From positions 3,392 to 67,391 of IMG/VR virus record IMGVR_UViG_3300015371_000026: a stretch of 64,000 bases of DNA; one strand, 5' to 3'. Origin of the DNA: a virus. The stretch's first letter is position 1. Every line of letters starts with the position of its first letter. A program made the translations under genes and the position numbers. Positions 48,531 through 54,643 of this stretch are shown here, piece by piece. The notes below the pieces were generated by a model. That model was not told the DNA's origin and made no database searches. It worked only from the letters and a program-made list of their open reading frames with translations.

Positions 48531-49058
48531 TCACCTCACTCCTTCCGCCAGCAGCGGGTCGACCGCCGTGGCCGTGTACATCGGACGATACGTCCCGACC
48601 GGCGCGGCGACGCCGATCGGCCCGACCACCATCTCGTACTGGGCCTGTGCCTGCGCTGCGCTCATGCTCCAGTACGTTCGCAGCGACCAGCGCAGCATGA
48701 CGACCGACCCGAGGTCGGCGTTCTGCTCGTCGTGCTCGTTGAACGCCACGTGCCAGAACTCGTGGTACAAGACGCGCGCTGCCGTCGCCCAGGACAACTG
48801 CATGCGCGGGTCGATGTCACCTGGCTTCCCGTGAAGCAGAAGATCAGCCGCCCATCCCGCGAGCGTGATTCCCTGCTTCCGGTCGCCTGCGTACGCGCAG
48901 CTGTTGTCGTAGCTCCACGTGTACACGGGCATGTCCAGCGGCAGTTTCGCTTCGAGCGCGGGCGACTCGACGCGCCCGTACTCATCTGCGTGTGCAGCCT
49001 GTACGCCGCCAGCGAGTGCGAGCGCGACGACGCAGCCGATGACGAGTAGCTTCGTCAT
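48531..49058 (-). CDS. Secreted HExxH protein
   Basis: Signal peptide ending AAHA; VLYHEFWH..E..AD. Confidence 0.55.
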   Translation of the reverse strand: MTKLLVIGCVVALALAGGVQAAHADEYGRVESPALEAKLPLDMPVYTWSYDNSCAYAGDRKQGITLAGWAADLLLHGKPGDIDPRMQLSWATAARVLYHEFWHVAFNEHDEQNADLGSVVMLRWSLRTYWSMSAAQAQAQYEMVVGPIGVAAPVGTYRPMYTATAVDPLLAEGVR

Positions 49059-49078
49059 CTCTCTCACCTCTTCCCTTC

Positions 49079-49143
49079 GGACTCATCGGTGCGGCCAAGT
49101 AGCCGCAGACGCGCGAACGTCTCAGCGCTCGCGCGTTTCGTCC
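49079..49143 (-). ncRNA. Hammerhead ribozyme, type II (CCGAUGA core variant)
   Basis: GGAC GAA ACGCGCGAGCG cugaga CGUUCGCGCGU C UGCGGC uacuug GCCGCA CCGAUGA GUCC; intergenic. Confidence 0.8.
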
Positions 49144-49958
49144 TTAGTAGTCCTCGTCCCAGCGCTCGCCCGCGTAGAGCGGGTCGAAGTCGCTCGGCTG
49201 GAGAACCGGATACCGCTCGTTGATCCGCTCTTGCTCGTCCAGGCGCTCGTCCCAGTGCTTGTCGCATCGCGGGAACTGGCGACCGGTCGGCGACAGCGCC
49301 ATCCTGTACTCGACGGCGCCCTCGCAGCCCTCCGGACCGTCCAGGCATCTCAGCTGCTCATCCATCTCAGCTCACCTCCTCCGCTTCGTCCTCGTCGATC
49401 TCTCCCATGTCGAGCAGCATCGCTGCCGCCTCGTGGACGTCGTCGGCGAGACCGCCCTCGACGAGCGCGTCCGCCTTCTCCTGCGGGGTCATGTCGTCCC
49501 CGTACGCCATCGCTCTCACCTCTCCTCGGGCGGGACGTACTCGTCGTCGAAGCCGTCGCGGAACCCGACAGACGCCATGCAGTCCTCGCACCACTCGGTC
49601 GGAACCGGCGCGTGTCTACGCGCCAGCGCCAGCGACTCATGGGAGCAGACCGCGCCGTGCTCGACGCAGATCGTCTCCCACCTGTTCCACGCGATTCCCT
49701 GTTCACGCGCCTCGGCCCGCTCGAAGTCGTCGACTCCGCGGTCGACGATCTGGACGAGTGTGCCAGTCTCGCGGGCGCGTCTCTCTTGAACTAGCCGCTC
49801 CATCGCTCTCACCTCTCTCGTTGTAAGCGTCTCCCTCGTGGCCGAAGCTACCCCCGACGAACTTATTCAGGGGGCCTCTAGGGCCCGAGCGAGCCAGCTG
49901 CTGGCAGCCGTTTTCGGCCTGCTAGGCCAGGTGCACCGACTACCCCGCGCAGCCTGGC

Positions 49959-51642: not shown

Positions 51643-54160
51643 GCTGCGAGCGACTAGCGCTCGCTTTCCTCAAGCTGCTGGATCTCCGCGTGCGTCTCGC
51701 GCAGCTCAGCTGCCTTGCGCTCGAACTCGTCTGCGATCGTCAGCAGGTTGTCCCCGTTGATCTCCCAGCCGAGATCTTCGCGCCAGTTGCCGCGACGCAG
51801 TACGACGATCGCCTGGCCCATGACTGTCTCGCTCAGCGTCATCGCGATCACTGCTCCTTTACGACGACGTGGAACTGTCGCCCGTCGCGCAGATGAACGA
51901 CGAACCCGCTATCGCGAGTCATCCACGTTCCGCCCGCGTAGTTCTCGGTCGTCGCCTCTTCCAGCTCGTCGACGTCGATCGAGCTGTCGACGTCCTCGGG
52001 ATGCCCGATCGCCTTGTCGACGACCTCCTGCAGAAACATCGCGAACTCGACCTCGGTGAGCGTCTGCTCGTCCTCGTCGGGCTCGTCTTCGCGTGAGTAG
52101 AAGTCGTACATCGCTCTCACCTCTCCGGAATGTTGTACTGGACGTTGAACTCGTACGTCGCGCGCGCCTCTGTTAGCTCGACGCGTGACGCGATCCACAC
52201 CATCTGATCGGTGCGCGTGTTGATCTCGACGAAGTACCGATACCCGGCGGCGACGACCGTCGTGATCTCGCCAGCGTCGGGCTGATCTTTCCAGTCCCAG
52301 ACGATCGGGACGATGTCGATTCGCTCGTTCATCTCAGCTCACCTCGCCTGGGTAACCGTCGGCGACGCAGCTCGGGCAGACGGGTCCGTACTCGTCGACG
52401 CTCCACTGGCCGCACTTGCAAAGGCCAGCCTGCTCGTTCAAGCCGACGGCGATCTTCGACGCCAGCTCGACCATCTTGGCGTAGCGCGCGGCCGCGACCG
52501 GCGAGACGCTTCCGTGCGCCTGCCAGTTCACCTCTGCGCCCTTCAGCTCTCCGCCGAAGCGCTCCTCTGGCTTCCAGATCTCGACCTTCGCCAGCGGTGT
52601 CGCGGGCTGCTCGTTCGGCCACAGCTCCAGCGAGTAGTGGCTTCCGTCCTCGATCTTGTACAGCGTCGTGTTCTCGTCCTTACTGATGACGATTAGCTCC
52701 TTCATCGTTCCTCACCTCCCTGCGCGCTCGCGCGCGCGTCGACTTTTGTTGTGCGTCTCTCGCACCGGGCCGCTCCGGTCAGAGCCGGAGTCGACCGCTA
52801 CGGCCGCAGTCATCGCAGACTTCCGCGCCGTAGCTCGACCAGCTCGAACTGGTCGAGATCGTCTCTACTGGCGTAGTGGAGCGCGAGCGTGTCGCGACCG
52901 CGCTGGATCGCCTCGACGTACGTTTGCGCGATCACGTCTGTTGTACGTCCGAACCCCATGCGCTCGTGGCGCCAGGCCAGCTTCCATTCGTAGGCTCGGT
53001 CTCTCATCGTTCTCACCTCTCCTCTGCGATGTCGACGAAGTCGACGCCGCTTCCGTAGGGATAGCCGTTGACGACGCTCGCGTGAACAAGCTCGTCGCCG
53101 CGCGTGTACAGCGTGACGCGGAGCCCGTTCGTCGCGAGCGCTCGCGCGTTCTCTGCCACGACCGCGTTCGCGCGCTTCGAGTACAGGATCGCGTAGGCGT
53201 GACCGAACCCGTGAAGACCGTCGCCGTGGGTACGAACGCCGAAGTCCTTGTAGCAGCCTGCTCGACGATCGCTGCGCCAACGAAGTCCGAGCGCGCTCAG
53301 CTCGTCGCGGATCTTCTGTGCCTGGAGCGTGATCATCGCTCTCACCTCTCGTCGTAGTAGTGGTCGACCATCTCGACGTGCACGGGCGTCTCCACTCGCG
53401 GGAACGCCTCCGCCCAGGAGACGACTCGCCCGTCCGGCATCCGGACGGCGTTGATCGCGACGTCGTACGCCGCGTCGATGTGCTGCTTCTTCTTCATCGT
53501 TCTCACCTCGCCTCGCGCGTACGCGCGTCTACGAACAGGCGCTCTCGATCTCGAAGCGCTCGTCCTCGGTCATCGTCTTCCACACTTTCCGGATGCGCGC
53601 CTCGATCCCCGTGCGGAACTGCAGCGGGCGCGTTCGAGCCTCGAATACCAGCTTCCAGTATGTCTCGACGTTCGTCATCGTGCTCACCTCTCCTCGATCT
53701 CGTAGGACGCTGCCTTGCGACTGTCGCCACCAGCGACGTCGCGGCGCGCGTTCAGATTGCGTCGACGCAAAAGATCCTGCGCCATCAGCTCGACGTTCTC
53801 GCGCGAACTCGCGATACGAAGACGCGCGCTGCCGATCTGCTCTCCGTCCTTCGTCAGAAGTTTGATCAGGTACTTCATCGTCGCTCACCTCTCAGTCTCT
53901 CTCGTCGATCTGCTCGCCCTTGCACCGGAACTTCCAGCAGCAAAGACCCGTCAGTACGATGTACAGCTCGATAGCGATCAGAACGATCATCGCTCTCACC
54001 TCTCCTCGCGGTCGAGCAGAACGTGCAGGCTCGACCAGTTGTGCATGAAGTCGTGCGCCCAGCTTGAAACGTCCAGCAGCATAAGCGCGACGTGCGCGCC
54101 GTGGATGACGAACTCGAACATGTGTCTCGCTCCGTTCCGCAGGCGACGTTTGCGCCCGCT

Positions 54161-54219
54161 CGAAGTTTCGGCCGTGCTCTCGGCCATCGTCAGCGCGCCA
54201 GCGTTAGGCGCGGACTTCG
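54161..54219 (-). ncRNA. Hammerhead ribozyme, type III
   Basis: CGAAGU C CGCGCC uaacgcu GGCGCG CUGACGA u GGCCG agagca CGGCC GAA ACUUCG. Confidence 0.85.
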
Positions 54220-54643
54220 TTCGTAACTCATCTGCCACATTCCGAGACTCGCGCGCGTCGCGTCTTATCTACTCGGCCGACTAACGACGCGTCCTGCACT
54301 CGCTGGCGTCTTCGCCGCGCGTCACCGCTTCGTTCGTTCGCTCTCGCTCGTTCGGCTCGTCAGCCTGCCCCGGCTCTCGTGCATCCGGGCGGCTCGCTTC
54401 TCGCGCGCGAGTCTCGTACTGCGTGTGACGCTCGCTCGTCTCGCGTCGTTCGTTAGTGGCTTCGTCATCTGTTATCCGGCTTTCGTTAGTTGGGCTATCG
54501 AGGGAGTCGCGCGTTCGACTCGGAATCTCGATCCCCGCTACTCGCCGGTGACCGCGGGGGGCTGTTCTCGGGAGGTCGCCCCTTCACCTTATGGCCCTCG
54601 TCTCGCGCTCTCTCGCTCTCTCTCCTCTCTCTCGACTAGCTAC

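Follow-up and report, generated by a model that had tools for sequence, protein, structure and literature searches.

In hammerhead ribozymes the U at position 4 of the core (U4) is part of the catalytic U-turn, and cleavage follows an established chemistry that leaves a 2',3'-cyclic phosphate on one product and a 5'-hydroxyl on the other. The closest described relatives of the element reported here are the type II hammerheads of bacteria and phages, which make up the Rfam family RF02276 and are described by Perreault et al. (PMC3088659). The majority of these have a pseudoknot of at least 4 bp between loop I and the 3' tail, which is not obligatory (PMC3088659). The same paper states that a change of U4 to C (U4C) "considerably decreases activity in vitro", and matches deviating from the core were rejected there unless they had been shown to be active. 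Its primer table includes an Aedes construct written "cCgauga", and its figure of inactive variants contains two Aedes structures, one of which may carry C4 (PMC3088659). Roberts et al. (2023; PMC9901934) likewise report low activity for mutations of the CUGA turn. A natural viroid variant with U4C (Ambros and Flores 1998, cited by PMC3088659) is weak in vitro and viable in vivo. In the haloviruses HF1 and HF2, a hammerhead called HHphage has a variant core and lies only a few bases ahead of a start codon on a polycistronic early transcript, and a 5' end has been mapped near its cut site (PMC3088659). In prophages and phages, clustered hammerheads of mixed types flank genes, and processing into gene-length mRNAs was suggested in 2011 (PMC3088659). 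According to Perreault et al., the function of phage hammerheads is unclear and some copies are perhaps inactive (PMC3088659). The kind of element reported here and its placement have therefore been in print since 2011, and the U4C variant is in print for a viroid. A phage class of hammerheads with C at position 4 (C4) was not found described in the literature searched, of which Dataset S1 of Perreault et al. may still contain C4 rows, and PMC13481778 has no passage on core variants.

The element lies in a 64,000-nucleotide stretch of viral DNA, referred to as the window, which comprises bases 3392–67391 of a 67,391-base IMG/VR virus record with direct terminal repeats. The window has a G+C content of 65%. 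As judged by third-position GC, the plus strand carries long genes from ~0 to 41 kb and the minus strand a run of small genes from ~42 to 54 kb. Within this run, the element is preceded by a gene for a 73-amino acid protein (49144..49365, minus strand) which matches phrog_6230, a family of unknown function, as well as phage proteins. Its relatives in a phage collection are 84 distant records, all below 60% identity, and hypothetical proteins of Mycobacterium and Gordonia phages share ~45% identity with it; since its relatives belong to such phages, the source virus is an uncultivated, actinophage-like soil phage. DNA contigs from four public sequencing runs carry the phage unchanged, two of the runs being labelled rhizosphere metagenome and two having a coded organism label; no RNA run with this phage was listed among the public ones. 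Over the hammerhead the contigs of all four runs are identical in sequence, with no variants.

The gene that follows the element (48531..49058, minus strand) is an open reading frame of 175 amino acids, with its ATG at 49058–49056 behind AGAGGUGA. It had been described as a secreted HExxH gene in a sequence-only reading of the window that preceded this analysis; the hydrophobic N-terminus and an HEFWH motif are indeed present in the protein, but it matches no Pfam or PHROG family. When seven neighbouring proteins were compared with Pfam and PHROGs, the match of the 73-amino acid protein to phrog_6230 was the only one. An 8-bp hairpin, GAUGACGA-AGCUAC-UCGUCAUC (49038–49059, minus strand), encloses the AUG of the 175-amino acid gene, so that this start codon is predicted to be base-paired; the same hairpin also gave weak look-alike matches to SIB_RNA and SNORD60 in the Rfam scan. 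Elsewhere on this strand, a 145-nt non-coding gap between the genes for a 299-amino acid and a 98-amino acid protein (49813–49958, minus strand) contains two GC-rich hairpins, GGCCUAGCAGGCC and GGGCCCUAGAGGCCCC. This gap has no Rfam match, and its sequence is identical in the one other contig found. No terminator-like sites were found on the minus strand between 47500 and 55500.

The whole motif is 65 nt long and runs from 49143 to 49079 on the minus strand, where it reads GGAC GAA A-CGCGCGAGCG CUGAGA CGUUCGCGCG-U C / UGCGGC UACUUG GCCGCA CCGAUGA GUCC, with the slash at the predicted cut. The TAA stop codon of the 73-amino acid gene is at 49146–49144, and the 5' strand of stem II, GGAC (49143–49140), begins one base past it. 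Next come G12, A13 and A14 of the core (GAA, 49139–49137), which align to the GAAA of RF02276. Stem-loop III (49136–49109), which is apparent in the sequence, the predicted fold and a motif descriptor alike, consists of the A15.1–U16.1 pair and ten further pairs; its 5' strand is ACGCGCGAGCG (49136–49126), its 3' strand CGUUCGCGCGU (49119–49109), and the loop between them CUGAGA (49125–49120). C17 is at 49108, and by hammerhead numbering the scissile bond should be on its 3' side (49108/49107), which is where the sequence-only reading had correctly placed the cut. Stem-loop I (49107–49090), again seen in sequence, fold and descriptor, has the strands UGCGGC (49107–49102) and GCCGCA (49095–49090) around the loop UACUUG (49101–49096), giving six Watson-Crick pairs, with U-G as a possible seventh. 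The second core strand, C3 to A9, is CCGAUGA (49089–49083), and both the sequence and the alignment to RF02276 show that the consensus U of position 4 is replaced by C (49088). The motif closes with GUCC (49082–49079), the 3' strand of a stem II of 4 bp that includes G10.1–C11.1. A spacer (49078–49059) with the Shine-Dalgarno-like AGAGGUGA at 49071–49064 follows, so that 20 bases lie between the end of the element and the ATG of the 175-amino acid gene; the GAGGUGAG motif is also found ahead of neighbouring genes. All the structural items previously listed for this element, namely an 11-bp stem III, GUC, a 6-bp stem I and a GGAC/GUCC stem II, were found in the sequence.

The comparison with described hammerheads is close in most respects. 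The three-helix junction of type II is there, stems I and III ending in loops and stem II being open, and so are G12, A13 and A14, the A15.1–U16.1 pair, H17 at the cleavage site and the standard pairs next to the core, G10.1–C11.1 and U1.1–A2.1. Topology, GAAA, A15.1–U16.1, GUC and G10.1–C11.1 are all as described for RF02276 (PMC3088659), and six of the seven letters of CUGAUGA are shared. In the core strand C3 U4 G5 A6 N7 G8 A9, only position 4 departs, being C, and the other six letters fit. As is the case for type II hammerheads of other phages, the element is intergenic, on the coding strand, in an early operon, and has a hammerhead of a different type nearby. It differs from RF02276 in having C4, in scoring 20.7 bits against a gathering cut-off of 37, in having no supported pseudoknot, and in a stem III of 11 bp where the Rfam model has 6. 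As it departs at U4 and stays below the Rfam threshold, the element is filed here as a C4-variant member of type II and not as a canonical one. The viroid U4C variant has the same single core change; however, in that case an RNA replicon processes its own multimers, whereas the present case concerns the mRNA of a DNA phage, and topology and stems are different. HHphage shares with the window element a variant core and a place shortly before a start codon in the early polycistronic RNA of a phage, but has another core variation and comes from another host domain.

Folding of an 81-nt stretch gave a minimum free energy structure that is exactly the three-way junction (-37 kcal/mol, z -3.45, one of 200 shuffles as good). 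In a context of 171 nt, stems I and III persist and the 4-bp stem II is absent from the minimum free energy structure. An Rfam search for type II hammerheads had been proposed as a check on the element, and on this check it falls short: on 261 nt, RF02276 gives 20.7 bits with an E-value of 0.054, below the gathering threshold. Over the whole window there are no gathering-level Rfam matches at all, and an E-value scan of the full window returned four weak, unrelated matches with neither of the two hammerheads among them. Both surfaced in Rfam only when small regions were scanned.

Further hammerheads with C4 were sought with the pattern GGACGAAAC-N-GTC-N-CCGATGAGTCC, which fixes the core and stem II only and leaves stems I and III free. 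In viral_contigs this pattern occurs in 23 stretches with 16 distinct sequences, and all 23 parse as stem III, C17 and stem I, with stem sequences that differ from one another in a compensating manner. A pattern allowing U4, A4 or G4 gave at least 138 stretches in the same collection, and among the matches listed there are 80 loci (78 distinct), all of them with U4; a pattern for A4 or G4 alone gave none, and neither did a pattern with G5A. Two stretches of a single sequence matched a pattern with A6G, but this sequence does not fold and lies in an apparent P-loop coding region, and it was set aside as a chance match. C4 is the only one of the single core changes tested that occurs. Its share of the subclass with a GGAC/GUCC stem II is at most about one in seven, the U4 count being a lower bound. 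In genome_contigs, which is far larger, the C4 pattern occurs in 27 stretches, and seven of these fold as hammerheads: they come from Saccharopolyspora, Actinophytocola and five metagenome-assembled genomes (actinomycete/Actinomycetota, Rhodothermales, Acidobacteriota and Alphaproteobacteria). The other 20 do not fold in this way; they exemplify chance matches, and their exclusion shows that the parse discriminates. When 20 C4 loci were scanned with Rfam, all were below the cut-off of 37, the best reaching 25 bits. Because C4 recurs with covarying stems while the other core variants are absent, it is a tolerated minority variant and not a defect of one copy. On one viral contig (L056, L057) there are even two different C4 type II elements, ~740 nt apart and flanking a short block, so that C4 is not a one-off defect there either.

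The window element, the 16 viral sequences and the seven genomic ones, the last having been chosen by the parse, make 24 distinct elements. Across these, 96.1% of cells pair, compared with 29–39% when the partners are slid, 10 of the 16 pairs change on both sides, and the covariation score was reached by none of 500 shuffles. A set without such selection, consisting of the window element and every viral match with none dropped (17 distinct sequences), gives the same picture over the first five pairs: stem I is 100% paired and stem III 95%, against 56% and 68% with permuted partners (counted with an anchored script; a MAFFT alignment had GUC out of register). The proposal of the sequence-only reading that a type II hammerhead with CCGAUGA fills the gap between a stop codon and the next ribosome binding site is thus borne out by the anatomy together with the covarying C4 set.

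Persistence of the element can be followed in five related contigs (L051, L055, L062, L064 and L066), in which the C4 element and the ribosome binding site are 100% identical while both flanks are variable. In a sixth copy, L220, stem III has a compensating swap of G-C to C-G relative to the five. Taken together, the identity among five contigs and the swap in the sixth would point to selection within a C4 lineage. The same five contigs have a second conserved non-coding block (CUCUGGCCAGGAAGUCGAAAGG...GGUCUGCCGGCAACCGCA) with variable flanks upstream of the C4 hammerhead, at columns ~330–400 of their alignment.

As to placement, in 15 of the 24 elements an open reading frame (at least 50 open codons) stops no more than 10 nt upstream, and in 20 of the 24 one starts 11–35 nt downstream. 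Members of the C4 class are accordingly compact intercistronic spacers on the coding strand, as in the window. It is worth noting that C4 and U4 elements also differ in composition. The base 5' of GGAC is A in 18/24 C4 elements and in 75/75 U4 elements among the matches listed, the base 3' of GUCC is A in 7/24 and 63/75 respectively, and C4 loci are richer in G+C (63% versus 52% for U4 among the matches listed). These differences may reflect a correlated change or may come from lineage sampling, the latter because the U4 set is confined to the matches listed out of at least 138.

The sequence-only reading had also suggested that a 3' GAAG pairs with the CUU of loop I. This suggestion fared less well: the contact amounts to CUU/AAG, 3 bp only, which is at chance level against permuted tails. 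With 12 settings for each set, C4 or U4, complementarity between loop I and the tail never rose above the permuted-tail null.

The 175-amino acid protein has no relative in the phage collection or in viral_contigs. For the 73-amino acid protein, there are 23 viral loci at 47–94% identity in viral_contigs, but none of the 23 has a hammerhead after the stop codon of the homologue, and the downstream genes differ in all of them. When these 23 records and the record of the window were scanned with RF02276, matches elsewhere scored at most 16.7 bits; the best eight were inspected and had no full core, and control genomes also give RF02276 matches at about the 16.7-bit level. A pattern for close relatives of the element had no matches in viral_contigs, and in metagenome_contigs it matched a single contig, which aligns over ~1,640 bases at 100% identity and is the identical phage. 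With no diverged orthologue found, covariation is readable for the class only. Covariation among related phages, which had been named as a check, is therefore present in the C4 class, but at the locus itself the only other copy is identical. In run X2, contigs agree with the window upward of 49146 and are unlike it below. The boundary at the stop codon (49144–49146) thus looks mosaic, and the hammerhead and the 175-amino acid HEFWH gene look like a module without counterpart in relatives. Absence of the element and the following gene from relatives would fit a gained module.

The other hammerhead of this phage, which had been noted before the type II element, is of type III and lies at 54220..54160 on the minus strand, with the canonical core CUGACGA / GAAA / GUC and an extra U after A9, so that it is near-canonical. 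On 221 nt, RF00008 gives it 35.5 bits (cut-off 48.5) with an E-value of 2.3e-6. Its cut is predicted at 54213/54212, and the element lies 39 nt before an ATG at 54121, which probably places it in the leader of the minus-strand early operon. Prefiltered searches of the whole record with RF00008 missed it and with RF00163 gave nothing, which is a limitation of the prefilter and not evidence. The two elements do differ as had been claimed, in topology and in all stem sequences. Independent acquisition, as proposed in the same reading, would fit these differences as well as the absence of the module from relatives; together with the selection for cleavage proposed alongside it, it counts as conjecture here. 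A distance of 5.1 kb separates the predicted cuts, with type III upstream on the shared minus strand, so that two hammerheads on one strand flank a block of genes; between them the minus strand showed no terminator-like site. This spacing is longer than the "close proximity" spoken of in the relevant passage of PMC3088659.

Three things are established: that the motif is there, that it is improbable by chance, and that it belongs to a covarying class which shares its place between cistrons. Cleavage, its rate and any effect on the fate of the mRNA are what these observations lead us to infer, and the account that is probably correct is that of a self-cleaving type II hammerhead, belonging to a recurrent CCGAUGA subclass, which processes an early polycistronic RNA. 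The element would be transcribed within the minus-strand early polycistronic RNA, fold to the three-helix junction and cut itself 3' of C17 (49108/49107), with C4 probably making the reaction slower than in a U4 hammerhead. The upstream piece would then carry the 11-bp stem III hairpin and a 2',3'-cyclic phosphate at its end, and the downstream piece would start with a 5'-hydroxyl and the stem I hairpin, 50 nt (49107–49058) before the AUG of the 175-amino acid gene. With the type III hammerhead at 54220..54160 cutting as well, a block of early genes of ~5.1 kb would be excised, and excision could give the downstream message a stability and translation of its own. Several points weigh against this account: Rfam calls neither the element nor the 20 C4 loci scanned, no diverged copy of the locus was found in the collections searched, U4C lowers activity in vitro (PMC3088659), no pseudoknot of loop I with the tail is supported, and the 4-bp stem II, absent from the predicted fold in the 171-nt context, would be melted by ribosomes that terminate at the stop codon just before it.

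Two ordinary intergenic hairpins might by chance lie beside GAAA, GUC and a near-CUGAUGA, and some observations are in line with this: an Rfam E-value of 0.054 on 261 nt is non-significant for a 64-kb window, and 20 of the 27 genome_contigs matches to the C4 pattern do not fold as hammerheads. A loose descriptor, which left positions 4 and 7 free and covered each of the three topologies, also matched 334 times in 300 dinucleotide shuffles of the window, or ~1.1 weak matches per shuffle. In the real window, however, this descriptor finds the element with stems of 11, 7 and 4 bp (a sum of 22), next to two trivial matches of 8–9 bp. Among the shuffles there were three matches with at least 5/5/4 bp, two with a sum of at least 18 and none with a sum of 21 or more, so that none of the 300 reaches the 22 paired positions observed. 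All 23 viral matches to the C4 pattern fold, whereas four control core variants gave none, none, none and one non-folding match. The element also fits precisely between a stop codon and a ribosome binding site on the coding strand, as the class does, and there is a second hammerhead in the same operon. In the window, a covariance model built from the 23 other C4 elements has a single match, at 49145..49077 (62.3 bits, E-value 2e-16); part of this score is circular, since the element's own core and stem II had served to fetch the set. Chance resemblance is thereby left very improbable, and the element is confirmed as real.

A more serious competitor, although still an unlikely one, is a relic derived from a hammerhead, in which the fold is kept without a useful rate of cutting and the two GC-rich hairpins serve as intercistronic structure, e.g. 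as a barrier to 3' exonucleases or as an RNase entry site. Mutation of U4, a base of the catalytic U-turn, lowers activity (PMC3088659, PMC9901934), an Aedes C4 construct was made and two Aedes variants are among the inactive examples (PMC3088659), and the element itself scores below the Rfam cut-off and has a weak stem II in the 171-nt context. Against this, no other core letter is changed in any of the 24 distinct C4 elements, and versions with A4, G4, A5 or G6 are absent from the same collection; this argues against a relic because those letters would drift too if there were no need for catalysis, with the reservation that the C4 pattern required the rest of the core, making relics with two changes invisible to it. 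The identity of the C4 element across five diverged contigs also speaks against a relic. A different way to read the class, and a distinctly doubtful one, is that C4 marks a functionally distinct, tuned subclass which cuts more slowly or in a condition-dependent manner and so times the processing of early transcripts in GC-rich phages. Dependence on pH or metal ion is suggested by the fact that C lacks the N3-H donor of the U-turn, and the frequent replacement of the A after GUCC, which is kept in only 7/24 C4 elements compared with 63/75 U4 elements among the matches listed, was counted toward this reading. Finally, the ribozyme could be regulated, with translation of the upstream gene setting folding and cutting, or with pairing of loop I to the Shine-Dalgarno sequence as a link to downstream translation. 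Stem II opens right behind the stop codon, one base past the TAA; 15 of the 24 class members are within 10 nt of a stop codon; and as read from the sequence, the UACUU of loop I can pair with the AGGUG of the ribosome binding site. However, neither the C4 nor the U4 set shows more complementarity of loop I to the first 6, 10 or 20 bases of the tail than permuted tails do, and phage operons are tightly packed in general, which makes regulation of this kind highly improbable. Processing of the early RNA by a self-cleaving hammerhead thus stays the preferred reading.

For phage biology, the finding adds one more phage to those with several hammerheads inside an operon, and leaves the understanding of what phage hammerheads are for unchanged. 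More is gained for the ribozyme family. At least 24 distinct natural U4C hammerheads are missed by Rfam thresholds (20 were scanned, at 25 bits or less), and C is tolerated in nature at position 4 of the "invariant" core, whereas A, G and substitutions at adjacent positions were not seen in the collection searched. This set of C4 elements is useful for studying how the U-turn accommodates a C, and for ribozyme searches that are less blind to core variants.
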